Virus record (IMG/VR): IMGVR_UViG_3300026382_000013
Coordinates: 17,331-81,330 of that record
Origin: a virus
Lineage: Duplodnaviria > Heunggongvirae > Uroviricota > Caudoviricetes
DNA: 64,000 nt
Strand: one strand, 5' to 3'
Shown here piece by piece: positions 3,130-64,000 of the stretch. The position numbers and the translations under genes are program-made. Numbering within the stretch: the first letter of the stretch is position 1; each line of letters begins with the position of its first letter. The notes under the pieces were generated by a model. It saw only the letters and a program-made list of their open reading frames with translations. It had not been told where the DNA came from and searched no databases.

Positions 3130-3140
3130 ATTTCTAACTT

Positions 3141-3217: not shown

Positions 3218-3241
3218 TATAATTTATTTTAAAGGAACTAA

Positions 3242-28627: not shown

Positions 28628-29212
28628 TTGGAATACCTATTAAACAAAAAACCTGAGACGATATGGGAAGAATACGTACCTATTGTTAAATCTGGAAACA
28701 CATATACAGTCTACTTAACAGACCAAATAGATGTCCCAGCTAACTACAATCAACTAATGCATGTGCTAACTAATGCTACAACACTAGATACAATTAAATT
28801 TATAATTAATAATGGTGGTGGAGTTATTGACACTGGATTTATGTTAATCAATGCTATCAATAACACAGATGCACATACTGTAGCCCACATAACTGGTACA
28901 GTAGCATCAGTTGCAACTATTATAGCTTTATCTTGTGACACACTTATATGTGATAACCATATATCTTTTATGATACATAACTACTCAGCAGCAGTTGGAC
29001 ACCAAAAAGGGCATGAACTAAAAGCTTATCAAAACTTTACAGACAGAGAGCTTAACAAAACTTTTCGCATAGTCTACGCAAACTTCTTAACAGAAAAAGA
29101 AATGACTGACGTTATAGAAGGTAAAGATATCTGGCTAAATAAAGAAGAAGTGCTGGAAAGATGGGAAAGAACTAAGGAAACAGTTCATGAGGAGGATTGC
29201 ATTGAACATTAA
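28628..29212 (+). CDS. ClpP-like (S14 family) serine protease
   Basis: INNGGGVI, GTVASVATIIA (Ser) and FMIHNYSA (His) align with ClpP INSPGGxV / GQAASMG / MIHQP. TTG start. Confidence 0.65.
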   Translation: MEYLLNKKPETIWEEYVPIVKSGNTYTVYLTDQIDVPANYNQLMHVLTNATTLDTIKFIINNGGGVIDTGFMLINAINNTDAHTVAHITGTVASVATIIALSCDTLICDNHISFMIHNYSAAVGHQKGHELKAYQNFTDRELNKTFRIVYANFLTEKEMTDVIEGKDIWLNKEEVLERWERTKETVHEEDCIEH

Positions 29213-32616: not shown

Positions 32617-32691
32617 TGAGTAGTACCATAGTGGTATTGGGCCAAGCTGTTAACTTGGAAGTCACTGGTTCGAATCCAGTCTACTCAGCCA
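32617..32691 (+). tRNA. tRNA-Asn (GTT), CCA encoded
   Basis: Acceptor TGAGTAG/CTACTCA; anticodon stem CCAAG/CTTGG with loop CTGTTAA; T-arm ACTGG-TTCGAAT-CCAGT; discriminator G; CCA. Confidence 0.8.
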
Positions 32692-32692
32692 T

Positions 32693-32780
32693 GGAAAGTT
32701 GACCGAGTGGTCTATGATATCTGTTTGCTAAACAGACGTAGTTAACTCTACCGTAAGTTCGAATCTTACACTTTCCACCA
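32693..32780 (+). tRNA. tRNA-Ser (GCT), type II with long variable arm, CCA encoded
   Basis: Acceptor GGAAAGT/ACTTTCC; anticodon stem TCTGT/ACAGA with loop TTGCTAA; variable arm GTAG-TTAACT-CTAC; T-arm GTAAG-TTCGAAT-CTTAC. D-stem has one mismatch. Confidence 0.7.
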
Positions 32781-37867: not shown

Positions 37868-38949
37868 TAGTTACATTCCTCAATCATTTTGTTTATTATA
37901 TCTTCTATACTGTTATTCGTAGCTTTATTTAGTGTACCTTCATCTACTATACTATCTACAGATGCTATAGCATATCCACCTGTGCTAGTACCAAAGCCTT
38001 TACTCTTAAGGTATCTAGTGATGCTCTCAAATAGTTTTTGAATACTGCTCTGCTCGCTCTGTGGAAATTGCTTAATGAACTCTTTCCGTATGTTAGGTTC
38101 TGCACTAAGTATAGCAACTAGTTCAGCGACTTGAGCAAACTTTGTAGGTCTTTTAGCTGCATACATTAATCTCTGTTTAAGTAAATTCTGTTCCAGTGTG
38201 TGGTCTGGGTCAAACTCTTTAACCATATCTATTGTATCTAGCAAATACTTAACTCTGGTATCACTCATATGGTTGCTAAGCCATTCAGCTGTTAGGTAAT
38301 GTCTTATTTCATGTGCAGTGTACACTTCATACATCGCCTCATCTACATGCTCATTAGGCTTGACAACAGTTATTACGCCCTCATTGTACCAGAACTCTTC
38401 ACCTTCTACTACAACACCTGGATACTCTTTTTTAAACTTAACATTAGCTGCTTTTATCTCAGCTAACTCTTTGGCATCTACATATACCTCATTAAGTTCT
38501 GAACCTGCATCAGTAGCTCCTAGAGCAGGGTTAGACTCTTTACTCACATCAATAGTAGCTTCTGTGGTATTGTACACATCAGCCAACTCTTCATAGAAGT
38601 TCTCACCTTCGTACACAGCAAGTGAATCCCCATTACTAAACTCATAACTCCATCTTTTATCTCCACGGGAGCCTTCTTGGTCATCCCAGAATGGTCCTTT
38701 CTCTTTCACTATATCGTCTAGTGTAACCTTCTCACCATCTAATACAAATGTATCACCTATGTTAGGTACTTTCCCTACATTACTAGTTTTATTGCTGTTA
38801 GGTAACTTACTTTTGTCTATTACATCTAGCATACTACCTATACTTTTAAAATTCTTATCTACTGTTAAGTACTCACCACTAAATTTACCCAACTTCTTAA
38901 GTTCATTATTTACAGCTTCTACTGCTGCTTCTACTGTACATGACTTCAT
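37867..38949 (-). CDS. virion-module protein (360 aa) with HExxH motif
   Basis: YTAHEIRHYL. Start overlaps the stop of the 2393-aa gene. Confidence 0.45.
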   Translation of the reverse strand: MKSCTVEAAVEAVNNELKKLGKFSGEYLTVDKNFKSIGSMLDVIDKSKLPNSNKTSNVGKVPNIGDTFVLDGEKVTLDDIVKEKGPFWDDQEGSRGDKRWSYEFSNGDSLAVYEGENFYEELADVYNTTEATIDVSKESNPALGATDAGSELNEVYVDAKELAEIKAANVKFKKEYPGVVVEGEEFWYNEGVITVVKPNEHVDEAMYEVYTAHEIRHYLTAEWLSNHMSDTRVKYLLDTIDMVKEFDPDHTLEQNLLKQRLMYAAKRPTKFAQVAELVAILSAEPNIRKEFIKQFPQSEQSSIQKLFESITRYLKSKGFGTSTGGYAIASVDSIVDEGTLNKATNNSIEDIINKMIEECN

Positions 38950-38951
38950 AC

Positions 38952-41900
38952 CTAACAGTCCTTAAATTTATTTAATATACTGACTATATTCTCAGCTACT
39001 TTTTTATCTTTTTTAGCTATTTTTTCTATAGCCTTAGAGACCTTATCAACTGGCCCTATATTTGGTATTATACTGTTATTATTCTTTGTATACGCTATTT
39101 TACTAATAACTTTTTTTACACTAGCCTCTAGCTTAGTCTCAGGTTCTCTAGCTGTGTATTCCATTACTCCAGTCTCTACACCTGCACCTTCTAAGGCAGC
39201 ATGCTCAATGTATAGATTCTTACCATCCATTAATGCAACTCTCCCAGCTTCACTATTCTTTTGTAACTCTTCCATGCTTCTATACTGTTTCTGTACTGTA
39301 GTAGGGTTAAAGTTATTATCTTTAAATAACTCCCCACCTATTATTTTATTTAGGTATGTTAGCCCACCATCTACATCATTTCCACTAACAATAGCTTCAA
39401 TAGCATTAGACTCTCTTTCCATGAATGCTTTGACATTACCTACATTCTTCCTACCTTTAAGGTTTTGTTTTAACTTTTCTAAAGCATATACTCTATTTAA
39501 TTCCTCAATACCTTTTGCACCAATAACATTTAGTGTTTTATTGAGGCTGTCTAACATTTCAGTAGGTAAGCTGTATGTCTGCATCAACTCAATAACAGCT
39601 TCATTATACGCTTGTGTGCCTGGCAGTGCATTCTCTATATCTAGCACATTTGCATCATGTATTCCTATAGAGTTGAATTTACTTAGTACTTTAGCTTGCA
39701 GCATCGCATCTTGAAAGTGGACTGTTATTGGTGCACCTCCTGTGTAACTTCCAATTAGTTTGTACACATCAGCATACGCACTCATCTTCTTACCATTACT
39801 CAGGGGTACACTACCTTGGTTATCCATATTCGTATCTACATTAACTTCGTACTCACCTTTTTCCCTAGATGCTATGACACCTAGGTCAGTATCTTTATCA
39901 GCGAATGCTACCTTGAATGTTGGTAGCACACCTTGTAATTCAGCTAGTACTGTATTTACCTCTTCAGTTGTTAATGTAGTAGCTGTCTTACCTGTTGCTT
40001 GTGTCTTCTCTTCAAGCTTTTTATCCATAGCTTTTATAACCCTTGGCTCTGCTGCTTTGAACATCATAGCGAATGTGCTATTAACTGTTTTAGTAGCTTT
40101 AATCAAATCTCCATACTGCTTCTCAAATGTTTCTGTTAGTGGTCCTTCTACAGCGATTGTTATACTATTTGCTAAGGCTTTCTCCTCGTTCAGTGTAAGC
40201 TTGAAATTTAGTAAATCTTTATTCTTATATGCTTTTCTAAGTCTATTGATAGCATCTGAGTTAGGATTTGTGATATTTAGTAACTCTGTAAGAGCCTTTA
40301 GTAGCTTTACCCTGTCTTTGTGGTCTGTAGCATTGTGAGCATCTTCTAACATCTTATACATATTGTCTACACCAAGCCATCCTTTGTTAGCTGCAATAGT
40401 CGCAAGAGCGGCACCGTAATTGAAAGTCATAAATGGATCTTTCATAAACCCTCTAGATATTGTCTCTTGTAAGCTCTCACCTAGTAGTTTAAATATAGTT
40501 CTTGTACGTTCTCTATCACCTTCTGGTAAACTTTCTATCTCTTCATATGTAACTTTAGCTGGTGCTTCATAGGCATCTTGTACATCACCTTCTTTCCACT
40601 TACCATATGTCTTAGTCTCTTCACCCTCTTTCACTTCAAACAATCCAGCTCTGGCTAGCTCTTCATGTACCTTACCTATATCTATACCGCTACCATCTGG
40701 TGCTATGAACACTGGCATTTGCAGTAGCTTGAGGAAGTAACCAGATGTAATAGCATCTGTCTCAAGTGTCATACCTGTTCTAAACATTTCTCCGTTGTTT
40801 TCAGCTTCTTTATATGCTCTATACTCCACTAACCCCAGTAATGCTAACTCTGGTTCATTTTTAGCATCAGTGGTCATTAGATATGCATATGCATCTTTTA
40901 GGTTATCATATGTATCTAGTTTATCTAATATACCTTTTAACTCTTCCATAGAACCTTTTATAGTCTTTTTATCTACTGCTACATCGAATGCTTGCCCAAT
41001 ACCCAACATGAACATAGTTTTTTTCTCGTTTGTGTCTACATCCACCATTTTATCCATTACAGCATGTCTATGAAGCTTTTTATCTTGCCAGTTAAATCTG
41101 TTAGACTTAATACCAAACCTATTATTAGACATGATGTACCACTGTGACCACATCTTAGACTCTTTAACCATTTCTACAGTTTCTTTGAAATACTTAATTG
41201 TATCTGCTATAGCTCTATTTTTACCATTAACAGCAGGTCTTCTTACAACATGTACATTCTTATCTACGTCAGTAATCTCTCCCATATACACGCTCATAGC
41301 CTTTTCACCTATCTCATCGAAGCCTTTTACAAATCTCTGGTTGAACTGTCTGGAGTCTTTAGTTTGTTTTTCAACGGCATCTTTACTTACTTTTGGTACT
41401 GTACCTTTGATATCCCCACTAGGGCCTTCTATACTTATTTCTTCTCTATCTACTTTAGGCTCTACTAGATGTATATCAGTGTCTCTTCTAGCTACTCCTA
41501 GAACATCTGTAAGTTCTTTTATACCTGCCTCTAATGGATTTATCTTTTTAGTTTTTAACCCTTCTTCAGTAAGCTTATATACTGTTATACTCTCATTACT
41601 AGAATCTTCCCCAAATACAGCAGATTTCTTTTTAACCTCTGGTTTAAGTAAGTTAGCCTTACTAGCTAGTCTCATGGCTAATAGTCCTAACTCTACTTTT
41701 AGTTTAGGAGCTAGTTCCTCGTTGTTAGCTTCAGCAGTAGCATCTTTATTCTTAATTCCAAGGTATTTGTACACATACTTCCCAATGCTATTAGCTTCAG
41801 CAGTTAGTAGTCCATCAACATCTTTAATTCTTTCTCGTATCTCATTTGTAACTGGAGCTTTTTTATCCATACCTAACATAGCTCTTACTTCAGCATCTGA

Positions 41901-44900
41901 CTTAATACCTGATACTTGTGTGGTGCTTAACCAATCTACCAACCCAAGTACAACAGCTTTATTGACTTGCTCATCTAACTCAAACTTATCAATAGTCTCG
42001 TATCCATTAGCATCTTGCTTAATGACTGGTGACATAAGTAATCTACTTATACTTTGAAAGCCTTTCACACTACTAACTGGTAGCACATGTAGTTGCTCTG
42101 TTTTATCTGCAAGGCCTAAGCTCTTAGCGGCTATACTGAGTCTATCCATAATACTTAACACTGTATCTAATGGACCTTCACTTTCAATCTCACCAATAAC
42201 TTCATCCATACTAGTTAGGTCGATACCTTTACCGTTAGACTCAAAGTGATCTGCTATGCTTGCTTCAGCTAGCTCTTCATTTGTGACTCTACCTTTAAGT
42301 TGCTGTCTATTCTTTATTTTAGCTTGTGTACTACTAAGCCTATCAATAAGTTGTGCCCCAACAGCTTCAGACTTCTTAACAGCTTTAAGCTCTTCTTTAG
42401 TAGACTTAATAAACTCTTTCTTAGTTTCTATTTCAGCTTCTAATTTCTTAGCTAGTTTAGCTTCTCTTCCTAAAGCATCTATTTTATCTTTCTTACGTTC
42501 TACTTGAGCTACACTTTTCTTTTGCTGTAACTGTACTTCATATTTCTCAGCCTCTTCGTCTATTTTTGCTAATTTCTTTGTATAGTAGTCATTTATCTTT
42601 TGTAGCCGTTTAGCTAGATTTCCTTTGATTAGAAACTCTCTCTTAGCTTGTCTATACTCAGCATCCAGATACTCAGACTTATTTATCTTTCTTGTTTGTT
42701 TCCCATGGCTTATATACTTAGTACTTAACTCTTCTAGTATGTCCTCATTAGCTGCTATATCTTTCTCAAGTTGTTTGATAGCCGCTTCTAGCTCTTTTAC
42801 TTCATCAGACTCTCTGCTTTGTTTATCAGCTTTCTCATTGCTGCTATCTTCTCGTTCTGTAATTTTAGTTTCTCTTCTAACAGTCTCTTTTTCTTTTGTA
42901 GTGCCTGTAGGTTGTTCTTCATTTTGTTCATCCTTATACGTTTTATTTTCTTGTGTTTCAGTTTCCCCATGTAATGCTTCTATCTGTTTAGCAAGTTCAG
43001 GGTCTTGCTCATATCCTCTATCCAACTCTGCTACATCATCTTCACTATACTTATCACTCTCATTAGGAGATGTCTTTCGCTTCATTAACTGCTCTCGTTT
43101 TAGTGCCTGCTCTTCTTCACTACCACCTATTGGTGTGTTATCTTTACTTGTATCTTGTAGCTCCTGAGCTCTACTACTCAACTTTTTCTTACCGCTTTTT
43201 GGTATTACTTTTTTACCATTAACATATGTAATACCAGCTTCTTTATTAGCTTTCCACACATCCCAAGCTTTCTGCATTAACTCAGCTTGTTTGGTATTCT
43301 TACCTGTGTCTCTACCACCATGTAAAAACTCTTCTAATCTTTTTGCAGTAGCCTTAGGCAGATGCTTATATATCTCACTAATACTAGGTACGTCTGGTTC
43401 TTGTATACTATCGTCAGTGTTGTAATCAGGTACACCCTCATCCATAGGTTGTGCTTTACTTTTAGTACCTTCTTTAAGCTCCTTAGCTAGCTCCTCAACT
43501 CTACCATCTGCAACAGCATTTGTAAAAGCTTGCTGTTCACTAGGTGTAAGATTTCTATCTTCCCTAGACATAAGTTCTTTAAGTGTTTCGTCACTTACCT
43601 TACCTTCAGCTAAGTCACTAACCCTAACCATAAGATTCATCTCTTGTTGCATAGGTTTAACCATTGTGTCTGCTGTGCTGTGGTTGTATGTGTAAACTTC
43701 CTTACCATGCGTAAACTCTACTACTGGTTCTTGAGTAACACCGTCCCATGATTTTATGTTCTCCGCATATTGTCTTCCAGCAGTCTCAAAAGCATCTAAT
43801 TTATCTTTCTGACTAGCCGTAAAGTGTTTTAGTGCATTTGTAAGATGCTTACGCAGTGCAGACCCTTTTGGTTCATGTATAAGTGCATCAGCGTATTCTA
43901 GCAACCCTGTTCTTTGCTTTCCTCCTATACTACCACCATAGTACTTTAATCTCAGGGAATCTTTATCTGTTATAGTAGCACCTTCAGGTATGTCTACTTT
44001 ATCGTGCTCTAACTCCCCAACAGACTCTACTATGTCTCTTTCAAGTTTCAGTCTTTCTAACTCTAATGCATCTTTTGTACTTTCTATATCTTTATCAATT
44101 TCAGCAATAGGTCTGTTATGTAGTACTGAAGCTTCTCCATTAAGTGCTCTAGACATTAAGTCAATTCTAACTATACTGTCTAGTATTTTTTCGCTTTCCT
44201 TGCTACCAGCAGTTTCATCTCCCATAGATTCAAGTTCTTTGCTCAGTACTTCTTTATACTTCCCTAGACCATTCAACATACCTTGTCGTTGGGTATCATC
44301 TACTTCTTTTCCTTCAGCGACATTCTTCATTATATCCTGAACAGTTGGGTCTTGTGTGTACACTTGAACATTATTAAGCACTGCCTCGGCATCTTTACTG
44401 AATGTATGTGCTTTAGTGCTTGCATTAGGTCCAGTAAGTATGTCATATTTACCTTTAAGAAACTTACCAGCTGGTTTAATAGCAGCTTCAGTGGTACTCA
44501 ATACTGCCATACCTGGCCCAGCAATTGCCCCCATAACAGCATTTACATATATTTCTTTTAACATATCTTTGTCTGTTATATCAAACTCACCTTGTCTACC
44601 AGCTAATTCTACCAAACCTTGCTGTATTGGTCCCTCTTGTATACCCTCAGTAGCCATTAACGTTGCAGTTTTAGCAGCTGGCTTAACTAACAACTTGCCT
44701 ATAACTGTAGCTGGTAACTCTCCCATAGCTTTAGTTAGTAACTTATCAGTTGCTTCTCCTAGTGACTTAAATGCTGCATCTCTAACAGCCCCTCCAGATG
44801 CCTTGCCTAATGCAAACTCACCTGCTGCTGTATCTACCGCTGTTGCTACAGTACTAAGTGTGCCTATAAGTGCCAATTCACTACCGTTAGGCTTTCTACC

Positions 44901-46133
44901 ATGTACTTTAATGAACTCTTTAGTAGCCTCATCCATAGTCTCCACATCAAACCCTGCGAAGACTGGAACTTTAGTTATACCTTTAGCTGTTAGTGCCTTA
45001 GTCAGCCCATAACTTTGAGCAGCCATTTCCATAGCGCCAAGGGGGTTGTTGTATGCTGCTGTAAACAGAGTACTGAAGTAGTTACCTTTGTCGAAGCCTT
45101 CGCCAACTTCTTTTTGGAACTTCTCTACATCTTCCCCATCAGGAGCTACATGTTCTTTATCGAATTTAGCTATAAGCTTGGAAGCTTCATCCATCGTATT
45201 TATAACTGACTTCACTGACTTACTATATACTGAACCATCTTCTAGGTAGTCACCACCTAATACTTCGTACAACTTTTTAGGGGCTGCTGTCACTGCTTCA
45301 GATGTTTTAAACAACGCTCCACTAACACCAGCTCTCACAACTTTTTCTACAGCACCCATAGGGCCTACATTAATTGACTCCATAGCTTCTGGGTTAGCAT
45401 TCATAAGTGCTTGTTCTAAGTCTTCTTGAGGTGGTGTGTAGTAAGCATTTTGTTGTGGATCATTAACAGCTAATTCTGTGATGTTAGTACCGTCTGCACT
45501 GCCTAATTCTGCTAAGCCCCTACCTTTAACACCAGTACCATATGATCTGCTAGTTATCGGGAGGTTGAGTGGTATATACTTTATAGTTTTACCATCTTCT
45601 CCTACATACTCTCCAGTGAGGTTTGCACTCTCTACTCCACGTAATAGTGGTTCTTGCCATTCTGTGTTACCATTAGCTAGATCTGAGAATAATTGTCTTT
45701 GTTGTCTATCAGCTACATCAATATAGTCTTGGTCTGTCAATGTGTCTACGGGCTTATTTAGCAAGTTAGCAACGTAACCAGGTTGTACTGCACGTTTGTA
45801 TCTACTTCTGTTTATTTCTTCAGTTGGGGAAGCTACTGCTCTTTCTGTATATGTACCATCAGCATTTTGCACTGGTCTTCTATGGTCACTTTCAACAGCA
45901 TCATACTCATACCCTGCTGCTGGCGTACTTACACGTACTTTACCTAGTCTTTTAGTTATAACTGTGTCTGCATCTAGAATACCTAGTAACACATCGTCCA
46001 TTAACGAGTCATCTAGGGGAGCTACATTAGTAGATGTACCGTGTCTGTTGATCTTTTGTTCCATAGCTGTTGCAGCATTTGCTGGCTTATTGCTAGGGTT
46101 GTACACCTCATAATTATCTATAGTCTCATCCAT
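38952..46133 (-). CDS. giant virion-associated protein (2393 aa) with a central ~350-aa K/E-rich coiled-coil
   Basis: Single uninterrupted ORF. Central segment ...KEKETVRRETKITEREDSSNEKADKQ...KLAKIDEEAEKYEVQLQQKK... Plus-strand antisense ORFs inside it are Ser/Leu-rich artefacts. Confidence 0.5.
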   Translation of the reverse strand: MDETIDNYEVYNPSNKPANAATAMEQKINRHGTSTNVAPLDDSLMDDVLLGILDADTVITKRLGKVRVSTPAAGYEYDAVESDHRRPVQNADGTYTERAVASPTEEINRSRYKRAVQPGYVANLLNKPVDTLTDQDYIDVADRQQRQLFSDLANGNTEWQEPLLRGVESANLTGEYVGEDGKTIKYIPLNLPITSRSYGTGVKGRGLAELGSADGTNITELAVNDPQQNAYYTPPQEDLEQALMNANPEAMESINVGPMGAVEKVVRAGVSGALFKTSEAVTAAPKKLYEVLGGDYLEDGSVYSKSVKSVINTMDEASKLIAKFDKEHVAPDGEDVEKFQKEVGEGFDKGNYFSTLFTAAYNNPLGAMEMAAQSYGLTKALTAKGITKVPVFAGFDVETMDEATKEFIKVHGRKPNGSELALIGTLSTVATAVDTAAGEFALGKASGGAVRDAAFKSLGEATDKLLTKAMGELPATVIGKLLVKPAAKTATLMATEGIQEGPIQQGLVELAGRQGEFDITDKDMLKEIYVNAVMGAIAGPGMAVLSTTEAAIKPAGKFLKGKYDILTGPNASTKAHTFSKDAEAVLNNVQVYTQDPTVQDIMKNVAEGKEVDDTQRQGMLNGLGKYKEVLSKELESMGDETAGSKESEKILDSIVRIDLMSRALNGEASVLHNRPIAEIDKDIESTKDALELERLKLERDIVESVGELEHDKVDIPEGATITDKDSLRLKYYGGSIGGKQRTGLLEYADALIHEPKGSALRKHLTNALKHFTASQKDKLDAFETAGRQYAENIKSWDGVTQEPVVEFTHGKEVYTYNHSTADTMVKPMQQEMNLMVRVSDLAEGKVSDETLKELMSREDRNLTPSEQQAFTNAVADGRVEELAKELKEGTKSKAQPMDEGVPDYNTDDSIQEPDVPSISEIYKHLPKATAKRLEEFLHGGRDTGKNTKQAELMQKAWDVWKANKEAGITYVNGKKVIPKSGKKKLSSRAQELQDTSKDNTPIGGSEEEQALKREQLMKRKTSPNESDKYSEDDVAELDRGYEQDPELAKQIEALHGETETQENKTYKDEQNEEQPTGTTKEKETVRRETKITEREDSSNEKADKQSRESDEVKELEAAIKQLEKDIAANEDILEELSTKYISHGKQTRKINKSEYLDAEYRQAKREFLIKGNLAKRLQKINDYYTKKLAKIDEEAEKYEVQLQQKKSVAQVERKKDKIDALGREAKLAKKLEAEIETKKEFIKSTKEELKAVKKSEAVGAQLIDRLSSTQAKIKNRQQLKGRVTNEELAEASIADHFESNGKGIDLTSMDEVIGEIESEGPLDTVLSIMDRLSIAAKSLGLADKTEQLHVLPVSSVKGFQSISRLLMSPVIKQDANGYETIDKFELDEQVNKAVVLGLVDWLSTTQVSGIKSDAEVRAMLGMDKKAPVTNEIRERIKDVDGLLTAEANSIGKYVYKYLGIKNKDATAEANNEELAPKLKVELGLLAMRLASKANLLKPEVKKKSAVFGEDSSNESITVYKLTEEGLKTKKINPLEAGIKELTDVLGVARRDTDIHLVEPKVDREEISIEGPSGDIKGTVPKVSKDAVEKQTKDSRQFNQRFVKGFDEIGEKAMSVYMGEITDVDKNVHVVRRPAVNGKNRAIADTIKYFKETVEMVKESKMWSQWYIMSNNRFGIKSNRFNWQDKKLHRHAVMDKMVDVDTNEKKTMFMLGIGQAFDVAVDKKTIKGSMEELKGILDKLDTYDNLKDAYAYLMTTDAKNEPELALLGLVEYRAYKEAENNGEMFRTGMTLETDAITSGYFLKLLQMPVFIAPDGSGIDIGKVHEELARAGLFEVKEGEETKTYGKWKEGDVQDAYEAPAKVTYEEIESLPEGDRERTRTIFKLLGESLQETISRGFMKDPFMTFNYGAALATIAANKGWLGVDNMYKMLEDAHNATDHKDRVKLLKALTELLNITNPNSDAINRLRKAYKNKDLLNFKLTLNEEKALANSITIAVEGPLTETFEKQYGDLIKATKTVNSTFAMMFKAAEPRVIKAMDKKLEEKTQATGKTATTLTTEEVNTVLAELQGVLPTFKVAFADKDTDLGVIASREKGEYEVNVDTNMDNQGSVPLSNGKKMSAYADVYKLIGSYTGGAPITVHFQDAMLQAKVLSKFNSIGIHDANVLDIENALPGTQAYNEAVIELMQTYSLPTEMLDSLNKTLNVIGAKGIEELNRVYALEKLKQNLKGRKNVGNVKAFMERESNAIEAIVSGNDVDGGLTYLNKIIGGELFKDNNFNPTTVQKQYRSMEELQKNSEAGRVALMDGKNLYIEHAALEGAGVETGVMEYTAREPETKLEASVKKVISKIAYTKNNNSIIPNIGPVDKVSKAIEKIAKKDKKVAENIVSILNKFKDC

Positions 46134-55063: not shown

Positions 55064-56251
55064 CTATTTTGTTGCAAGGCAGTTGATGCGTAAAAGTTTT
55101 TCTGGCTGTAAAGCTAGACCAGCATAGAAGAAGTTTCCAGAGAAGAAACCTTTAGTTCCGTGTGGGTTAGCACTATCAATAGCTTCAGGAGCTTTTGCAT
55201 AGAATTTAACTTTACCACGACCTTTAAGACCAACAGTAGCGAATGCGCCTTTAGTTGGGAAAAGCATTGGGAATACATCAAAGTTAGTTCCGTCATTACT
55301 TAACTCACCAGCGTAGTCAGTAGGGATTTCTGCACCAGCTCCAACTTCCATCATAGCACCTTCAGACTCGATGAAACGTACATCATGCATTGAACCAACT
55401 TCACCTTCTGCAAGGTTACCAGCAGCAGCATATTGGTATGCAGGGATATATGCAAACTCAGTAGCATATACAGAACCACGTGTAAGTGTTTCTAAGTCAT
55501 ACTTAATTTCTGGTCCAATGATTGAGTAGAACGCTTTATTAACTGGTTTAGTACCAATTTTAGTAGACCCTGTAAGAATCTCAGTTTGACGTTGAGCACG
55601 GTTACGTACTAGTGCTTTAACACCTTTACGAACTAAGTCAAAAGATACTTTATAAAGTTCTTCATTTGTACCATCAGCTAAGATAGTTGCACCCATTTGT
55701 GCTTTAGTGATGTTACCACCAGCATTGATTACGATACCAGCACTTGATAGCATATCTTTTTGTACTAAATCTTCGTATGTTTGGTTAATTAAATAACCAA
55801 GTTCTTCACGATATTTTACTTGTGTGTTGTCTTCTGAGAACAGTGTAGCCTCATCAGTGTAATCTACCATAAAACCATAACGGTTAAGCGATGTCTCAAC
55901 TGTAACTTTCTTAGGTGTAACAGAGTTGATTGCTCCAGCACCTTCTGGAAGTCCAGCACCAGTTCCATCTACAGCTGCAAGTTTAGCAGATACAGTAGCT
56001 AGATCACGTTTTCCTAGGTAACCATTTGCTGCAAAGTTTACATCACCTTGGTCTAGGTCATAAATGTGTTGCCATTTAGAAATTTTGAAAGTCTTACCCA
56101 TACGTGTAGGCATAGATTTTCTATCTACGAATTGTCCATAAATTGATACTGCATTTGCAGCTTTAATACCAGCTCGGTCATAAAAATGTGTTACTGTGTT
56201 AGCACCAGATGATGCAGTTGTAGTACCATTACCATAAATTGTTGTTGCCAT
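55064..56251 (-). CDS. major capsid protein (395 aa)
   Basis: Position directly after the scaffold-like gene. Size typical of an HK97-fold capsid. Followed by a long gap with a terminator hairpin. Assignment positional. Confidence 0.55.
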   Translation of the reverse strand: MATTIYGNGTTTASSGANTVTHFYDRAGIKAANAVSIYGQFVDRKSMPTRMGKTFKISKWQHIYDLDQGDVNFAANGYLGKRDLATVSAKLAAVDGTGAGLPEGAGAINSVTPKKVTVETSLNRYGFMVDYTDEATLFSEDNTQVKYREELGYLINQTYEDLVQKDMLSSAGIVINAGGNITKAQMGATILADGTNEELYKVSFDLVRKGVKALVRNRAQRQTEILTGSTKIGTKPVNKAFYSIIGPEIKYDLETLTRGSVYATEFAYIPAYQYAAAGNLAEGEVGSMHDVRFIESEGAMMEVGAGAEIPTDYAGELSNDGTNFDVFPMLFPTKGAFATVGLKGRGKVKFYAKAPEAIDSANPHGTKGFFSGNFFYAGLALQPEKLLRINCLATK

Positions 56252-58129: not shown

Positions 58130-58354
58130 CTAGTATCCTTTATACATTGATTGAGCCATACTGTGTGCTTTTGCAAGTTCACTAGCTAGCCCATCTATTA
58201 CTGGTTCTACACTCTTTACACCATGGTCTAAACCTTGTGTAAATGCACTCTTCATCTCAAACTTCTTGTTAGCCTCATCGTAGGCAGCAGCCTTTTGTTT
58301 CATAGTTTGAAGCATACTTGCCTGTTCTGTTACTGTTCCATTGTCATAAATCAT
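58130..58354 (-). CDS. head-module small protein (74 aa)
   Basis: ORF with overlapped stop/start with the portal gene. Confidence 0.4.
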   Translation of the reverse strand: MIYDNGTVTEQASMLQTMKQKAAAYDEANKKFEMKSAFTQGLDHGVKSVEPVIDGLASELAKAHSMAQSMYKGY

Positions 58355-60315
58355 TTCATTACTCCTACTTCACCTTTTGGGTCTAATCTCTTTTGTATCA
58401 TCATTTGCTGTACATTGAGCTTATTTCTAAGTTCCTCTAGTTCTAGCCTCTCTTGGTGACCTAAACCTAAATTCTCTTTCATGTAGTTTAAGTCAGCAAC
58501 ATCAGCACCTGCTTCTAAGTTTCTTGCTCTAGCTTTCTCTACAAGTGTTTTGGCTTCTTTGAGCTGTCTATCAATCTCATTCTCTTTACCTTGCATATGT
58601 TCATTGAAAGCTCTAGCCTCTAATAATGCATTCTCTAGCTTAGCCTTCTGCATATCTATATCTTGCATTGGGTTAGCTTGTGGTTTAAAGTCCATAAGTT
58701 TCTTTTCTAAGTCTGGCATTCTACTCAACTTAGCAATATCTGCAAGTATAAGTTGTGTAAACTCAAATGGTACTGTGTTACCTAGTGTTTGCAGTAGGAA
58801 ACTTAGTTGTTGTGATTTAGCACTATTGTCTTCAGCAGTACTTATACTAATATCAATGTCAATCTTACCATTAAGGTCATCTCTTCTGATCGGTACAAAC
58901 TTTTCATTTGTTATACGTACAACCTCCTCCTCTTCAAGGAATTCTGAATTGTAACTCATCCACTTTCTCATTAGTGGCTTAATAAGGTTCTCTGCTATGT
59001 TCCTAACTATATCAAGTTTTCTAACCGCAGCAGCATCTAATGTGCCTCTAGCAGCAGTTGCACTACTACCAAGACTACTACCATTTAACCCACCACTGAA
59101 GCTCTTAACACCAGTCTGTGCTTCTATCTCATTATTCATGAGACTTAACATATTAAACGCACTGCCAGGTATTTGGTTATAACTACCTTGCCAGAAGTCA
59201 TTAGGGCTAGTGTTGAACTCAAAGTTATCACCAGCTAGAAATCTCTTCCTATTCTGACTGTTCAATGCTCCACGTCTAATACCAACTTGACCATTGTTAC
59301 TCTGAGCCATATTATCTATAAGCCCACGAGTGATAGCTGTTTTAATCTTTTGATTATCTCCAATGTTTTCTGCTAATGCTTCACCGAATAACTGAAATGG
59401 TACGGCATTAAAAGGTACTACTATAAATGGAGGTTTTTTATCTGGGTATGGATTATCTTCCAATCTAATTATTGTATCTCCTACCCATGCACATACAACT
59501 TGTTCTACAACACCGTCATTATCTACATCATAGTTACCCCAGTACTCATACACCATAATCTTCTTACGAGCTTTATCTTCAAACTTAAATGATGTATCAT
59601 CTTCGTTGGCATAATCACTGTCATTATCTGGGTCATTACTATCCAGTTCTACTTTATCTAAGTTCTTGAATCGTCCATCACTTTTTAATGTACTTATATC
59701 TGTTTCATACCTATAAATAACAAACTGACACTTATCCATATCATCCATACATGTAGGGTCTATGTACACATCTTCATTTCTACACACTGTTGCTGTAGGC
59801 TGGTTCTTCAATACTCTTAACTTCTTAACCATATCCATAGCTATGTAGTCTCTACCATACTCATCAGTTGCAATTACTTCAGTCTCTTCTTCGTACTCTT
59901 CTTCTTTGTAATCCCATCCAGTCTGTATAACTACTGTACCTTCAGTCGCTAGTACTCTTGTAGCTTTGTTTATGAAATTATATCTTGGGAATTTTCTACA
60001 GAATTGTGTATTAAGTAGTAGCTCATTCTGCCTAGCAGCTTCAGCATCTTCATATGTGACTGGATTACATGAGATCACATCTTGGGAACTTAAGAACGGA
60101 TCTGTAATACTTGGTATCATCCACTCTAACTGCTTCTTGATATCTTTACTTACTATCTGTGATCTACCTTCAACTTCATTACCATACGCTTTACCATAAG
60201 TTTCACTAATCCATGTGTCCCTTTGATCAGTCCACTCTACACGTGTAAGGTCGGCTGCTGCTAAGTCTGCTTTAAAAGCTTTAAGTAGTGCTTTCTGATT
60301 TATTTTACTTTTCAT
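58351..60315 (-). CDS. portal protein (654 aa)
   Basis: Large ORF at the head of a portal/small proteins/scaffold/capsid gene order. ATG at 60315 preceded by gtgaga. The track's 60327 start is GTG. Confidence 0.5.
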   Translation of the reverse strand: MKSKINQKALLKAFKADLAAADLTRVEWTDQRDTWISETYGKAYGNEVEGRSQIVSKDIKKQLEWMIPSITDPFLSSQDVISCNPVTYEDAEAARQNELLLNTQFCRKFPRYNFINKATRVLATEGTVVIQTGWDYKEEEYEEETEVIATDEYGRDYIAMDMVKKLRVLKNQPTATVCRNEDVYIDPTCMDDMDKCQFVIYRYETDISTLKSDGRFKNLDKVELDSNDPDNDSDYANEDDTSFKFEDKARKKIMVYEYWGNYDVDNDGVVEQVVCAWVGDTIIRLEDNPYPDKKPPFIVVPFNAVPFQLFGEALAENIGDNQKIKTAITRGLIDNMAQSNNGQVGIRRGALNSQNRKRFLAGDNFEFNTSPNDFWQGSYNQIPGSAFNMLSLMNNEIEAQTGVKSFSGGLNGSSLGSSATAARGTLDAAAVRKLDIVRNIAENLIKPLMRKWMSYNSEFLEEEEVVRITNEKFVPIRRDDLNGKIDIDISISTAEDNSAKSQQLSFLLQTLGNTVPFEFTQLILADIAKLSRMPDLEKKLMDFKPQANPMQDIDMQKAKLENALLEARAFNEHMQGKENEIDRQLKEAKTLVEKARARNLEAGADVADLNYMKENLGLGHQERLELEELRNKLNVQQMMIQKRLDPKGEVGVMK

Positions 60316-60351
60316 TAGTCTCACCACACCCTATTTGTTTAATTGTGCTCA

Positions 60352-61557
60352 TTATAGCATCTCTTCTCTTACGGAAGCTTTAACTAAGTCTATGGGAACT
60401 ATGTTTCTTGCTATCTCTCCATACTTCTTACTGTATGTAATAGCGACAGTTTGCTTATGTCCTCTGTACCCTGCTCCACTTGCCCAAGCATCATTATGTG
60501 TTGCATTCCTAAAACTCTCACATCTTGCTATTGGGTTATCTACTACGCTATCTTTATGCACATGACCAGTCAGCCAATATCTATGTGTTGTGCTACTTAT
60601 GTCCTCTTTCCTATCCCACACCATAACTTCAGGCAGTCTTTGCATCTTAGTCGCATGGCCATGGTGGAAACCTAGTAAAGTCTCTCCATGCTTGTAATAC
60701 TTATGCAACCCTTGTTCACAATTTACAGTAAGCCTTGGTTCATTTCTATAGTATGCACTTAACATAGCTATTAAATAGTTTGGTACTAAGTCACTGTGGT
60801 TCCCAGCTACTATTATGTATGTAACCCTAGCATGCTTCTTAAGTGCTAAATCTATCATCTCTAGTTTCATATCTACAAGTGCTTTAAATACCTTTGCATG
60901 CCTACCATCAACATCTAGCACATGTCCACTCTTAGTCCTAGCATCATCATTAGCAGCATGTAATGTATCACCTAAATCCAACACTATAGCTTCTTCAGCA
61001 CTTGGTGTAGTCTCAGTAAGTATGTACATACTGTTAATAACATTACACTTAACACTATCTACGTCTACATTCTCTCCTGTCTCTGGTGCCCATGAGAACT
61101 GTCCTAGGTGTATATCTGTACTAACGTAGGCCACTAGTAAGTCTTTCACCAACTTCTTAGGTTTCTTTATTGGTTTAGCCTTACCGTCAACTTCTTTGGC
61201 TAGTTCACTTGTAACTTGTTGAATAGCCTCTAATGTACTTTCATCTGTACTCTTAGTTTTAACCCACTGCATGACTTCAACTTTCTCACCAGTCTCCTCA
61301 TCAGTTTTGTATAATGTACTTGTACCACCTAGCACCTGTTTATTTGGTACATACTTATCCACACCTTCAGCTAATGCTAACTTCCTACCTCTGGCTAAGA
61401 TAGCTTGCAGACTTCTTTTGTTAAGCCCGAGTACTTTAGCTGATTTAGCTACAGTACCAGCATCTCTAAGAGTCTCAAAACACTCTCTTTGTCTTTTACT
61501 TATTGTACTAGATGCTAATATAGCATCGACATCGTATGAGTGCTTATTGTTATCCAT
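60352..61557 (-). CDS. N-terminal HTH domain fused to a calcineurin-like metallophosphoesterase
   Basis: N-terminus KRQRECFETLRDAGTVAKSAKVLGLNKRSLQAILARGRK (sigma-r4/terminase-small-like HTH). Phosphoesterase motifs STDIHLG (DxH), LGDTLH (GDxxH), VAGNHSD (GNH[DE]), GFHHGH, LTGHVH (GHxH). Confidence 0.7.
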   Translation of the reverse strand: MDNNKHSYDVDAILASSTISKRQRECFETLRDAGTVAKSAKVLGLNKRSLQAILARGRKLALAEGVDKYVPNKQVLGGTSTLYKTDEETGEKVEVMQWVKTKSTDESTLEAIQQVTSELAKEVDGKAKPIKKPKKLVKDLLVAYVSTDIHLGQFSWAPETGENVDVDSVKCNVINSMYILTETTPSAEEAIVLDLGDTLHAANDDARTKSGHVLDVDGRHAKVFKALVDMKLEMIDLALKKHARVTYIIVAGNHSDLVPNYLIAMLSAYYRNEPRLTVNCEQGLHKYYKHGETLLGFHHGHATKMQRLPEVMVWDRKEDISSTTHRYWLTGHVHKDSVVDNPIARCESFRNATHNDAWASGAGYRGHKQTVAITYSKKYGEIARNIVPIDLVKASVREEML

Positions 61558-61560
61558 ATA

Positions 61561-61974
61561 CTATGCCTCAAATGTTGTTATGTAGCTGTATTCTGTGTTA
61601 GCTCCATCTGCATGTAACCAGTGTACACCCTCTTCTAGTCTAGTTATCCATACAAACTCATCTTGATGGTCTAGTATATACTCTCTCACTTCTCTAGCTG
61701 TGTAGTGGCTAAACACTGCGTCAAGAGCATTAGCATAGCTATGTTGACTTCCATAACTATACCATTGACTTTCAGGTGTCCTAATACCACTCCATTCTCT
61801 ATCCCCATTCCAGTGGTAGTTATTAATAGTCATAGTACCTTTACTGAACACTTCTTTAAGGTGGTCCATATCATGTATCATACCTCTATCTACGTATCTC
61901 CATGCACTCTCTCCGTACTTCTCGTACATCTTCTTTGGTACTATCTCATGTATCTCAAAATATTCACTTTTCAT
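61561..61974 (-). CDS. endolysin, peptidase M15 (zinc D-Ala-D-Ala carboxypeptidase / L-Ala-D-Glu peptidase fold)
   Basis: SQHSYANALD (SxHxxGxAxD) and VHWLHAD motifs. Adjacent to spanins and holin. Confidence 0.65.
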   Translation of the reverse strand: MKSEYFEIHEIVPKKMYEKYGESAWRYVDRGMIHDMDHLKEVFSKGTMTINNYHWNGDREWSGIRTPESQWYSYGSQHSYANALDAVFSHYTAREVREYILDHQDEFVWITRLEEGVHWLHADGANTEYSYITTFEA

Positions 61975-62207
61975 TACTTACACCTTTCTTCATTATGTCT
62001 CATATCTATAATACACTTTCTCATTGCATTAACAACTTCAGTATCTGTAGGTAAGTCAAACTCACACTCAGCATTCTCTACAATACACTTTACTGGTACT
62101 TTAACCTCATAGGGGTCTGGTACATATTTAACCTCAGGTTCACACATACAGCCGCTAAAGGTTATGGCGAATATCATCAATGACAGACTTAATATCTTTA
62201 CATTCAT
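61974..62207 (-). CDS. o-spanin (outer-membrane lipoprotein, Rz1-like)
   Basis: Signal plus lipobox ITFSGC. 77 aa. Its 5' end overlaps the 3' end of the i-spanin in another frame. Confidence 0.6.
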   Translation of the reverse strand: MNVKILSLSLMIFAITFSGCMCEPEVKYVPDPYEVKVPVKCIVENAECEFDLPTDTEVVNAMRKCIIDMRHNEERCK

Positions 62208-62517
62208 TACTATATACCTCTTTATACTTATATCTAATCTCAGCTGGTTTAGCTTTAAACGCAGCTAACCTCTTATCAGCAGCATCTACATCTAGCTTCA
62301 TCTCGCTAATTCTAGCATTTTGTTTACTAACAGCTGCTTTAAATCTTTCAGTTACAAGTTGCTCTGCCATGTAGTTACGTTCACATTTAGCTTTAGACTT
62401 CTCTAACTTGTCAATTCTACTTTTCAGTCCATCAACATAAATCCATAAACCTATTACTGCTAAGACTATAGCCCCATAAGCTATCATATTTTTATACATA
62501 CTTAGTTGCGCGATCAT
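62155..62517 (-). CDS. i-spanin (Rz-like; N-terminal TM plus coiled-coil)
   Basis: TM segment MIAYGAIVLAVIGLWIYV, then KSRIDKLEKSKAKCE... coiled-coil. Overlapped with the o-spanin. Confidence 0.6.
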   Translation of the reverse strand: MIAQLSMYKNMIAYGAIVLAVIGLWIYVDGLKSRIDKLEKSKAKCERNYMAEQLVTERFKAAVSKQNARISEMKLDVDAADKRLAAFKAKPAEIRYKYKEVYSNECKDIKSVIDDIRHNL

Positions 62518-62720
62518 TTACTTATCCTCCCTTTGAAGCCTTCTGCAAGCTCTATAACAACAGTGTTAAGCGTATCACTACGAACCATGATAAATGCCAT
62601 AGCGTAAAGGAGCAGATACCCAACTGTACTGACTATACCTTCAGAGCTACCACTATAGATAACATAGATGTATGTCAGCATAAAGGTAATGAATGCCGAG
62701 GAACTCTTCCAATTTTTCAT
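62514..62720 (-). CDS. holin (class II, two TM)
   Basis: 68 aa. TM segments AFITFMLTYIYVIY and IVSTVGYLLLYAMAFIMV. Charged C-terminus. First gene of the lysis cassette. Confidence 0.6.
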   Translation of the reverse strand: MKNWKSSSAFITFMLTYIYVIYSGSSEGIVSTVGYLLLYAMAFIMVRSDTLNTVVIELAEGFKGRISK

Positions 62721-62869
62721 TCAGCATCCCCTATATATATTGCACTAGTAGCAATCTCACCGATATCTTTTATACCTTGTGCGTACTCTATTCTAGTTAT
62801 GTCATAGGCTAGGTACATAAAGTAACCTAACACTATGTACCTAGCGAGTAGCTTTAGCTTTGTAGCCAT
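62717..62869 (-). CDS. small single-TM protein (50 aa) not in the ORF track; candidate holin partner / antiholin
   Basis: SD ggagag then ATG at 62869. Stop TGA overlaps the holin ATG (ATGA). Protein MATKLKLLARYIVLGYFMYLAYDITRIEYAQGIKDIGEIATSAIYIGDAE. Confidence 0.3.
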   Translation of the reverse strand: MATKLKLLARYIVLGYFMYLAYDITRIEYAQGIKDIGEIATSAIYIGDAE

Positions 62870-63795: not shown

Positions 63796-63848
63796 GCATC
63801 ACATATCATACCATTATCACAAGGCTTTCCACACTCTCTACACATAAC

Positions 63849-64000
63849 TTACACTACCTCTGGTTCTACAACTTTTGGAACATATTTCATCTCAAACTTA
63901 CGAAACACACCACACTCATTACCATTTAAGTTTGTGTAATCAATCTCATCTGCTGTAAAGTTAAGTTCATCTTCAATACCATTATCTCTCATATCTACTA
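63849..64000 (-). CDS. hypothetical protein, C-terminal fragment (start beyond the window)
   Basis: Open minus-strand frame from the window edge to TAA (plus 63849-63851): ...NGNECGVFRKFEMKYVPKVVEPEVV*. Confidence 0.4.
   Translation of the reverse strand, partial: VDMRDNGIEDELNFTADEIDYTNLNGNECGVFRKFEMKYVPKVVEPEVV

Follow-up and report, generated by a model that had tools for sequence, protein, structure and literature searches.

Metallophosphoesterases (MPEs) with rather different functions have been described in bacteria and their phages. The Pseudomonas putida MPE (216 aa; PDB 6nvo), an Lhr-associated Mn2+-dependent ssDNA endonuclease, is a stand-alone nuclease that works without Rad50 and is linked to a helicase. 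The Ser/Thr phosphatase of lambda, NinI, is phage-encoded and lies near the late regulator and the lysis region of that phage. In phage T5, the pre-early protein A1 (556 aa), a predicted metallophosphatase restricted to Demerecviridae, is necessary and sufficient for degradation of the host chromosome and is also reported to bind RNA polymerase, and its separate DNA-binding partner A2, which the phage needs as well, is dispensable for DNA degradation (bioRxiv 10.64898/2026.04.02.716235). With regard to phage protein families, homologues of the protein described here were found in 2035 phage records, where members of PHROG 704 carry names such as 'DNA repair exonuclease', 'putative phosphoesterase' and 'HTH and metallophosphatase domains containing protein'. 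Examples include a core gene of Drexlerviridae (T1-like phages), ORF32 of Pantoea phage Nifs112 and gp08 of Salmonella phage Shemara. In Drexlerviridae, the family gene is a persistent core gene that stands directly upstream of the holin-endolysin-spanin genes in 508 of 522 genomes, and in those without the SH3 gene polynucleotide kinase is among its commonest neighbours (PMC13164509). A literature search for an assayed PHROG 704 member found none, returning genome-annotation mentions only.

The window, that is, the whole 64-kb stretch of DNA that was analysed, belongs to an N4-like phage, of whose genome about 17 kb lie outside it. The features discussed below, all on the minus strand, are the following.

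60352..61557, minus strand: HTH-metallophosphoesterase (HTH-MPE) gene, PHROG 704 member; 401-aa ORF with an ATG start codon, phrog_704 profile match, AlphaFold2 (AF2) model
61351..61497, minus strand: N-terminal three-helix HTH, aa 21-69; AF2 helices, with HTH Pfam families matching homologues
61192..61338, minus strand: family-specific beta-hairpin (aa 74-103) and helix (105-122) joining the HTH to the catalytic core; AF2 strands and helix
60394..61149, minus strand: metallophosphoesterase catalytic core, aa 137-388; motifs I-V
61566..61569, minus strand: GAGG ribosome-binding site, read in the sequence 8 nt upstream of the ATG of the HTH-MPE gene
61561..61974, minus strand: endolysin, 137 aa, directly upstream in the same operon; phrog_894 endolysin, 1.7e-10
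61974..62517, minus strand: overlapping genes of a spanin pair: o-spanin-like lipoprotein (61974-62207) and Rz-like i-spanin (62155-62517)
58351..60327, minus strand: portal, directly downstream; phrog_1216, 7e-192, and PF23899 SU10_portal

The HTH-MPE gene is real and not a chance ORF, because further metagenomic contigs encode an identical protein and homologues at E<=1e-3 fall into 4461 clusters (50% identity), most of which measure 380-400 aa and align from about residue 20 onward. Sequence comparison places the protein as a divergent member of PHROG 704, a widespread, already annotated and uncharacterised phage family: the phrog_704 profile ("DNA repair exonuclease") matches residues 34-390 over its positions 20-387 of 390 (E 2e-81), and identity to proteins of isolated phages is about 30-35% at most. 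The likeness to the family includes a length of about 380-400 aa, the order of HTH, beta-hairpin and MPE domain, the invariant residues and the frequent siting beside lysis genes. The window copy differs from other members in being carried by an N4-like podovirus, in a late operon, where it is inserted between the endolysin gene and that of the portal. No gene stands at the matching spot in E. coli phage N4, whose Rz-like spanin abuts the portal directly, and in the N4-like roseophage RLP1 a distant copy sits in the early region. A 56% identical protein (P0040) is encoded on another contig in a different gene order.

The surroundings of the gene agree with the earlier note, which had described an HTH-MPE fusion located between the lysis cassette and the portal. 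The i-spanin is assigned by phrog_1152 (Rz-like spanin, 4.8e-4), and the o-spanin by a lipobox-like ...FSGC in a 77-aa ORF and by the overlapping arrangement. On the other side, the portal is 39% identical to N4 gp59; on the identical contigs, gene callers start it at the ATG at 60315, giving 654 aa. The start codon of the HTH-MPE gene lies 3 nt past the endolysin stop codon, with its ribosome-binding site overlapping the 3' end of the endolysin gene. On the minus strand, the intervals between endolysin, HTH-MPE gene and portal hold no terminator-like sites and only weak promoter-like matches (9/12). Within the late operon of this N4-like phage, the gene is thus co-transcribed with both the lysis genes and the portal gene and is translationally adjacent to them. 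Among the listed contigs that encode identical proteins, four carry a DUF1353 gene, each beginning 0.1-1 kb upstream of it.

As the note had also observed, there is no terminase-like ATPase in the late arm: neither tblastn with N4 gp68 over the 64-kb window nor the comparison of late-arm ORFs with terminase PHROGs found one. The question of where the terminase lies was answered via a relative, L014, together with synteny to N4. In N4, the lysis cassette adjoins the portal, and gp69/gp68 fill the packaging slot about 10 kb further upstream. In L014, a TerL homologue is found 8.2 kb upstream of the phage's own MPE gene, with tail and lysis genes between them, and a 47%-identical endolysin homologue stands directly upstream of that MPE gene. 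Since the lysis genes of N4 normally adjoin the portal, the position of the gene ceases to be an argument for a packaging role.

With regard to domain architecture, the AF2 model of the 401-aa protein (pLDDT 93.5, pTM 0.81) predicts HTH helices at residues 21-33, 36-43 and 47-69 (pLDDT 96-98), followed by hairpin strands at 74-85 and 92-103, the helix, and a beta-sandwich MPE fold. All five motifs of the calcineurin-like superfamily (PF00149 clan; DxH, GDxx[DH], GNH[DE], H and GHxH) are present with all metal ligands, namely I, D148/H150; II, D197/H200; III, N253/H254; IV, H299; and V, H332/H334. In the protein they read D148-I-H150, G196-D-T-L-H200, G252-N-H-S-D256 (motif III thus being GNHS), H298-H-G-H301 and G331-H-V-H334. 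The ligands map to site 1 (D148, H150, D197, H334) and site 2 (D197, N253, H299, H332), with H254 and H200 at the positions of the Mre11 transition-state histidines. In an alignment of 82 sequences, D148, H150, G196, D197, G252, N253, H254, R275, H299 and H334 are invariant, and the conservation of H200 and H332 is at least 96%. The full motif set noticed earlier is confirmed, and the MPE active site is complete.

The three parts of the protein are conserved to different degrees in the same alignment. The hairpin, with conserved S80, W98 and K100, equals the catalytic core in conservation (top-residue frequency 0.53, against 0.54 for the core), and there are six conserved basic residues (K100, R219, R275, R326, R365 and R384). 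The HTH is the least conserved part of the family: its columns are filled in 87-97% of the 82 members, and its sequence is poorly conserved (entropy of about 3 bits). The query itself gave no Pfam match at E<=1 and nothing usable in NCBIfam and PADLOC scans; among the 82 homologues, Metallophos is matched by 29 (best 7.7e-6), Metallophos_2 by 23, HTH_1 by 14, HTH_23 by 13, Sigma70_r4_2 by six and GerE by five. The earlier note had read the N-terminus as an HTH of the sigma-r4 or small-terminase type. The HTH itself is supported by the AF2 helices and by the HTH families matched in homologues, and the small-terminase type finds no counterpart among the 25 Pfam families listed for the 82 members. 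A small-terminase identity was accordingly rejected, TerL not adjoining the MPE gene in L014 either.

The note had proposed to place the protein among the MPE subfamilies. In the modelled structure, the catalytic core is far nearer to nuclease-type MPEs (PolD DP1, Mre11 and SbcD) than to protein phosphatases, which were the poorest structural matches. At the level of sequence, a phmmer search of the query against PDB sequences returned nothing, and none of the matches obtained with the family profile, to Mre11, GerE and LrpA, was significant; the best were all to Thermotoga maritima Mre11 (E 0.06-0.16), aligned on 'DxHlG...GDlLH'. The protein is not an orthologue of Mre11/SbcD (T4 gp47 type), because it lacks the capping domain that is C-terminal to the nuclease domain in those proteins and a Rad50 partner, no Rad50/SbcC-like ATPase being found when window ORFs 150 aa or more in length were compared with PHROGs. 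DP1, the small subunit of archaeal PolD and a 3'-5' proofreading exonuclease, is 14% identical to the window protein. It differs in that the window protein has no OB fold, its core being preceded in the AF2 model by the HTH, a two-stranded hairpin and a helix, and no DP2-like partner, the polymerase of the phage being of family A.

Like the window protein, T5 A1 is a phage protein with the MPE fold, and the two share DSB-repair nucleases and polymerase proofreading subunits as structural neighbours. The window protein combines in one chain the two kinds of domain that T5 divides between A1 and A2, and its gene is late, not pre-early. Homology is not demonstrable beyond the superfamily motifs: for A1, BLASTP gave E 0.52 and hhalign with the family profile E 0.067 with a probability of 0.8% over motifs II-III only; for A2, hhalign gave E 0.28; and the top 50 structural matches in BFVD do not include A1. 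A1 and A2 were therefore kept as a functional analogy only. The match of the family profile to the P. putida MPE, over motif III, is weak and not significant (E 0.5), and that enzyme differs in having neither HTH nor hairpin and in its link to a helicase, as no helicase gene adjoins the window gene. NinI and the PPP-family phosphatases share the superfamily with the window protein, which lacks the PPP Ser/Thr phosphatase marks (GDxVDRG, GNHE and close structural similarity); with the structural ranking given above, this led to the rejection of a protein-phosphatase identity.

On balance, the gene seems somewhat more apt to encode a DNA-binding phosphodiesterase with a binuclear metal centre than anything else, most likely a late-expressed DNA nuclease of phage DNA metabolism. 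The HTH would dock the enzyme on duplex DNA, and a Mn2+/Mg2+ centre would cleave phosphodiester bonds with no need of a Rad50-type ATPase. Its task might then be either the breakdown of host or unpackaged DNA for nucleotide salvage, as has been proposed for the T5 A1 MPE-fold protein, or the trimming of recombination and replication intermediates. The recognition helix is variable, which points to targets that differ from phage to phage or are bound with loose specificity. Nuclease activity of the family as a whole is predicted solely from the fold.

The gene neighbourhoods of other lineages, which consist of DNA-processing or nucleotide-salvage genes, count in favour of such a nuclease. In Drexlerviridae, a helicase and a VRR-NUC gene lie upstream, often with a polynucleotide kinase or dNMP kinase adjoining, and in Klebsiella phage VLCpiM12a a polynucleotide kinase adjoins the family gene. 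The order in Pantoea phage Nifs112 is 5'-3' exonuclease, HNH, endonuclease VII, HTH-MPE, phosphatase, dNMP kinase and ligase, and in Campylobacter phage F361 it is Holliday-junction resolvase, ligase and MPE. Further neighbours are topoisomerase and primase in Vibrio VAP7, SSB in Vibrio K392, and FEN, dUTPase and helicase in marine phages. In a small sample of 16 lineages that are not independent of one another, seven have the family gene adjacent to lysis genes, in unrelated phages and beside non-homologous cassettes, and the other nine have it in replication/recombination modules or uninformative surroundings. Two observations sit less easily with the nuclease reading: late expression is unusual for an enzyme that degrades host DNA, and was counted against it, and the lysis-gene adjacency in about half of the sampled lineages receives no account from it.

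A more specific version is unlikely, if conceivable: the family would be a single-chain functional counterpart of T5 A1 and its DNA-binding partner, a Mre11-like nuclease guided by its HTH and independent of Rad50, which would destroy the DNA of the host or DNA left unpackaged. If it were true, the recurrent siting at lysis cassettes, in at least seven lineages, would reflect an unrecognised late lytic step that ties lysis to the clearance of DNA or the salvage of nucleotides.

Another, rather unlikely, possibility is that the protein is a transcription factor, whose sigma-r4/LuxR-like HTH would govern late or lysis genes and whose MPE domain would sense or hydrolyse a nucleotide signal. Several homologue records are annotated 'transcriptional regulator' or 'sigma-70 region 4 domain-containing protein', the reported binding of T5 A1 to RNA polymerase fits, and the Drexlerviridae arrangement is suggestive. 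A position upstream of lysis genes is that of late regulators such as lambda Q. However, Dhillonvirus, RcGingersnap and the window all have the gene downstream of the lysis genes, inside the very operon that would need activation. Moreover, homologues from Campylobacter phages, about 318 aa long, have no HTH at all, and tblastn matches to Flavobacterium and Roseovarius phage proteins span the catalytic core only; the invariance of the catalytic residues beside the poorly conserved HTH likewise argues against a regulator.

The kinases and ligases among the neighbours bring to mind an end-healing enzyme, a 2',3'-cyclic phosphodiesterase or 3'-phosphatase that would act with polynucleotide kinase and ligase to mend the breaks that host defence nucleases make in tRNA or DNA. 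MPE-fold domains do carry out end-healing in bacterial Pnkp and in the lambda phosphatase. In favour of this are the polynucleotide kinase that commonly adjoins the gene in Drexlerviridae without the SH3 gene and in the Klebsiella phage, and the ligase that adjoins it in the Campylobacter phage and lies nearby in the Pantoea phage. The proposal is nevertheless judged improbable.

It is less plausible still that the protein is an anti-defence enzyme, a second idea of the earlier note, degrading cyclic-nucleotide immune signals or dephosphorylating proteins of the host or of its defences. A nucleic-acid polymer is the substrate indicated by the HTH and the conserved basic residues, protein phosphatases are the poorest structural matches, and in Drexlerviridae the gene is a persistent core gene and not a variable accessory one; the lack of a PADLOC match adds only weakly, as PADLOC holds defence and not counter-defence proteins. 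The siting in seven lineages could also indicate a function in lysis itself, either as a nuclease that removes leftover unpackaged DNA when the cell lyses or as an LpxH-like enzyme that assists lysis by hydrolysing nucleotide-linked precursors of the envelope, and this seems about equally doubtful. The remaining nine lineages speak against it, lysis cassettes often mark module boundaries that gather unrelated genes, the sample has the limits given above, and a lipid or a sugar nucleotide as substrate fits poorly with the HTH.

Finally, a packaging or ejection enzyme, in which a small-terminase-type HTH would aim the phosphoesterase at genome ends and replace or aid the terminase, as the earlier note had suggested from the gene's place directly upstream of the portal in a window without terminase, is very improbable: although the HTH is of a generic type found also in small terminases, the L014 and N4 layouts speak against it, the gene is not terminase-adjacent in any of the 15 other lineages, and PHROG 704 spans phages using different packaging strategies. 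The protein is neither a packaging enzyme nor a substitute for the terminase.

The result is thus mostly corrective, in that the HTH-MPE gene of the window provides no evidence of an unusual packaging system. Sequenced phages with a PHROG 704 gene number more than 2000, among them coliphages of the T1-like, Jersey-like and Dhillon-like groups, which find use in phage therapy and serve as laboratory models; in metagenomes the family forms about 4,500 protein clusters. If the function of an HTH-targeted, Rad50-independent nuclease were shown, together with its target, several phage families would have a role assigned to one of their core genes, and the result would provide a second case, beside T5 A1, of an MPE-fold enzyme in the takeover of host DNA.

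The minus-strand open reading frame (ORF) at 60352-61557 starts with ATG and encodes a protein of 401 aa, a helix-turn-helix (HTH) metallophosphoesterase (MPE). The preceding gene ends with a TAG stop 3 nt from the ATG, and its 3' end contains the ribosome-binding site of the ORF, GAGG, 8 nt upstream of the ATG. The five phosphoesterase motifs listed in an earlier note on this DNA are all found in the ORF (D148-x-H150, G196-D-x-x-H200, G252-N-H-S-D256, H298-H-G-H301 and G331-H-x-H334), and the metal-ligand set is complete. In an alignment of 82 homologues (30-67% identity), D148, H150, G196, D197, G252, N253, H254, R275, H299 and H334 are invariant (82/82), while H200 and H332 are conserved in at least 96%. 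This invariance indicates that the catalytic centre, as judged from the alignment, is under selection and not a dead domain. The AlphaFold2 model based on the same alignment (mean pLDDT 93.5, pTM 0.81) contains the following elements:

aa 21-33, 36-43 and 47-69: three-helix HTH, with an extended third helix
aa 74-103: long beta-hairpin
aa 105-122: helix between hairpin and core
aa 137-388: phosphoesterase core

The HTH helices (21-69), the core and the Pfam matches of the homologues agree with the domain call of the earlier note, namely an N-terminal HTH followed by an MPE domain. The query itself has no Pfam match at E<=1. Among the 82 homologues, Metallophos is present in 29 and Metallophos_2 in 23, together with the HTH families HTH_1 (14), HTH_23 (13), Sigma70_r4_2 (6) and GerE (5), and none of the 25 families listed for these members is a small-terminase family. 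The HTH helices occur in 87-97% of members, yet no other part of the protein varies as much in sequence: their entropy is about 3 bits, against 1.9 for the core. Along its full length, HTH-MPE matches the phage family PHROG 704 (label 'DNA repair exonuclease'; E 2e-81), and the protein is very probably an active HTH-MPE of this family.

With regard to the kind of phosphoesterase, Foldseek on its own did not separate the MPE subfamilies. Structural comparison gave the following values:

PolD DP1 proofreading exonuclease: 15.6
Thermotoga maritima Mre11: 14.8
Staphylococcus aureus SbcD: 14.3
run of further Mre11/SbcD entries: 12.5-13.4
MJ0936 phosphodiesterase: 14.3
LpxH: 13.4
GpdQ: 12.6
Rv0805: 11.8
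Ser/Thr phosphatase PP5: 8.6

Small phosphodiesterases are thus close behind the nucleases, and protein phosphatases are far lower. When the family profile was compared with PDB sequences, the best matches were all T. maritima Mre11, at non-significant E-values (0.06-0.16), aligned on 'DxHlG ... GDlLH'. The histidine of motif II is a feature of Mre11, and HTH-MPE likewise has H200 at that place, 96% conserved. The modelled fold falls in the nuclease branch of the MPE superfamily. Among the subfamilies raised in the earlier note, the nuclease type is nearest, whereas orthology to Mre11/SbcD does not hold: the chain stops 13 residues past the core and hence has no Mre11 capping domain, and a PHROG scan of the window ORFs of at least 150 aa showed no Rad50/SbcC-like ATPase. 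PolD DP1 was also rejected, since HTH-MPE has no OB fold and the phage polymerase belongs to family A.

In the protein, a conserved hairpin connects a DNA-binding-type HTH with an intact binuclear-metal centre. The HTH would tether the enzyme to duplex DNA, and its variability relative to the core fits a diverging or loose sequence specificity. By the standard MPE scheme, D148, H150, D197 and H334 would form site 1 and D197, N253, H299 and H332 site 2, while H254 and H200 would lie close to the scissile phosphate; this Mn2+/Mg2+ centre may cut phosphodiester bonds without an ATPase partner. Six conserved basic residues in the alignment would fit a polyanionic substrate. The favoured role is DNA breakdown or processing, and we lean, by a little, towards a DNA nuclease of phage DNA metabolism; any particular biological role is doubtful. 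Of the proteins studied so far, T5 A1 is the closest precedent: this predicted metallophosphatase also has double-strand-break repair nucleases and polymerase proofreading subunits as its structural neighbours. Host chromosome degradation requires A1, and A1 alone suffices for it; T5 in addition needs a separate DNA-binding protein, A2 (bioRxiv 10.64898/2026.04.02.716235). Homology was not demonstrable by hhalign of the HTH-MPE family against A1 (E 0.067) or A2 (E 0.28), so that the comparison is an analogy only.

The gene neighbourhoods of HTH-MPE, sampled in 16 phage lineages that fall into three groups, include several rich in DNA-processing or salvage genes:

Pantoea phage Nifs112 (Autographiviridae): 5'-3' exonuclease, HNH, endonuclease VII, HTH-MPE, phosphatase, dNMP kinase, ligase
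Campylobacter phage F361: Holliday-junction resolvase, ligase and an HTH-less MPE, in that order
Vibrio phage VAP7 (Ackermannviridae): topoisomerase II and primase nearby
marine phages of ~46 kb: FEN, dUTPase and helicase nearby
Proteus phage 2207-N35: dCMP deaminase and dUTPase nearby
Vibrio K392: SSB nearby, lysis genes within ~1 kb
Drexlerviridae: helicase and VRR-NUC upstream, polynucleotide kinase or dNMP kinase often adjoining, lysis genes within ~1 kb

In the marine phages (L021 4781-7371; L023 4628-7353), HTH-MPE (450-456 aa) is paired in a two-gene unit with the gene upstream of it, which is 364-392 aa long, has no Pfam domain and may encode a partner protein; the unit is divergent from the FEN, dUTPase and helicase genes. 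Lysis genes lie at most about 1 kb from HTH-MPE in 7 of the 16 lineages, three of which are also in the DNA-processing/salvage group, and three further contexts are uninformative. The seven are the window phage with its metagenomic relative L014, Drexlerviridae, Dhillonvirus SSL-2009a, Guernseyvirinae Shemara, Casjensviridae RcGingersnap, Vibrio K392 and Aeromonas AsC4_1 (loci compared: window 60352-62869, L004, L005, L006, L017, L018 and L019). In Drexlerviridae, HTH-MPE is found by lysis genes in 508 of 522 cases (PMC13164509). The adjoining endolysins differ in annotation between lineages. A lysis-coupled role is suggested only by this recurrent adjacency, which may stem from module boundaries and shared ancestry among siphoviruses. 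Healing of nucleic-acid ends together with polynucleotide kinase and ligase is consistent with some of the neighbourhoods, although MPEs known to heal ends are all from the lambda-phosphatase branch, which is distant. Regulation of late or lysis genes, with the HTH acting as a transcription factor, agrees with the position in Drexlerviridae; however, the gene lies downstream in the window phage and two other lineages, and the Campylobacter phage members have no HTH. An anti-defence phosphodiesterase is improbable, and nothing supports it.

The window phage is N4-like, as its gene content shows:

3141-3217, 32617-32691 and 32693-32780, plus strand: tRNAs Met-CAT, Asn-GTT and Ser-GCT
7980-9413 and 10056-10880, plus strand: family-A DNA polymerase, two ORFs
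33539-37867, minus strand: N4 virion RNA polymerase-profile ORF, 1442 aa (phrog_2206 profile positions 2238-3405)
37867-38949, minus strand: ORF without family match, 360 aa
38952-46133, minus strand: N4 virion RNA polymerase-profile ORF, 2393 aa (phrog_2206 profile positions 1024-2015)
55064-56251: major capsid protein
58351-60327: portal, 39% identical to N4 gp59
61561-61974: endolysin, directly upstream of HTH-MPE
61974-62207: lipoprotein ORF overlapping the i-spanin
62155-62517: Rz-like i-spanin, upstream of HTH-MPE

Genes for replication and nucleotide metabolism, of N4 type, fill the plus-strand arm: a split family-A polymerase, primase, helicases, SSB, a Sak4-like annealing protein, ribonucleotide reductase and PhoH are among them. 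The polymerase ORFs are parted by small paralogous ORFs (9407-9667, 86 aa; 9676-9945, 89 aa), both ending in ...FKHKLL, and may represent an interruption by a mobile element or a truly split polymerase. The virion RNA polymerase, a single gp50 of ~3500 aa in N4, is split here (33539-46133, minus strand). The tRNAs Asn-GTT and Ser-GCT close the early arm; right after them comes the strand switch, which shows as a break in GC skew and AT skew near 34000. At 28628-30572 (plus strand, early arm), a ClpP-like protease gene adjoins the PhoH-family gene, a pair also adjacent in another phage, L008 (17297-19261; 41% and 49% identity), which has a different layout, a PhoH homologue with Pfam PIN_4 and PhoH domains, and a 56%-identical HTH-MPE.

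As the earlier note had it, HTH-MPE sits between the lysis cassette and the portal; small membrane-protein ORFs also lie upstream. Along the minus strand from endolysin to portal there is no terminator-like site and promoter-like matches are weak, which makes the gene part of the late operon, expressed with lysis and head genes. The note took this position for a packaging slot. Yet the N4 late strand reads gp69, gp68 (large terminase), gp67-gp64 (tail/appendage), gp63, holin, endolysin, Rz-like spanin, portal, so that a lysis cassette next to the portal is the normal layout, with packaging genes ~10 kb further upstream; compared with N4, HTH-MPE is an insertion between the two. The window indeed holds no gp68 homologue, but its edge lies 2.4 kb upstream of HTH-MPE, and contigs with identical proteins could not be followed beyond it. 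L014, with a 63%-identical HTH-MPE in the same endolysin-MPE-portal order, has a clear gp68 homologue (E 8e-60) 8.2 kb upstream of it. The absence of a terminase is thus an edge effect, not a sign of odd packaging, and a role in packaging or ejection is very unlikely. Among the contigs listed, the four with the DUF1353 gene of this phage, from different metagenome assemblies (L011, L012, L002 and L013), all start 0.1-1 kb upstream of that gene; these shared starts, near ~63800-64000 of the window, suggest a hypervariable or repeated region beyond the edge (tail-fibre genes or genome end).

Between the window (60352-61974) and L014 (9539-17260), the gene arrangement is kept despite only 30% identity of both portal and major capsid protein, while the endolysin shares 47%. 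That endolysin and HTH-MPE are much better conserved suggests that phages have exchanged a lysis-MPE block or that this block is under unusually strong constraint.

At a broader level, 2035 phage records contain homologues by tblastn; none reaches 60% identity, the best being about 35%, and hosts include Escherichia, Klebsiella, Salmonella, Vibrio, Campylobacter, Flavobacterium, Rhodobacter and Ruegeria. Depositors label them 'DNA repair exonuclease', 'putative phosphoesterase', 'oxidoreductase', 'transcriptional regulator', 'sigma-70 region 4 domain-containing protein' or 'HTH and metallophosphatase domains containing protein'. With HMMER, an exhaustive search over 1.84 billion representatives matched 4461 clusters at E<=1e-3, of which 874 pass E<=1e-30, mostly of 380-400 aa and aligned from about residue 20, so that most include the HTH. 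The early-region orf27 of the N4-like Roseovarius sp. 217 phage 1 is a distant full-length structural homologue. No experimentally characterised PHROG 704 member was found in the literature searched. HTH-MPE is hence a new, divergent member of a known, extremely common and biochemically uncharacterised phage family, and what is peculiar locally is that it stands as an insertion between the endolysin and portal genes of an N4-like late operon. The larger interest lies in the role of this very abundant family and in its frequent company of lysis genes.
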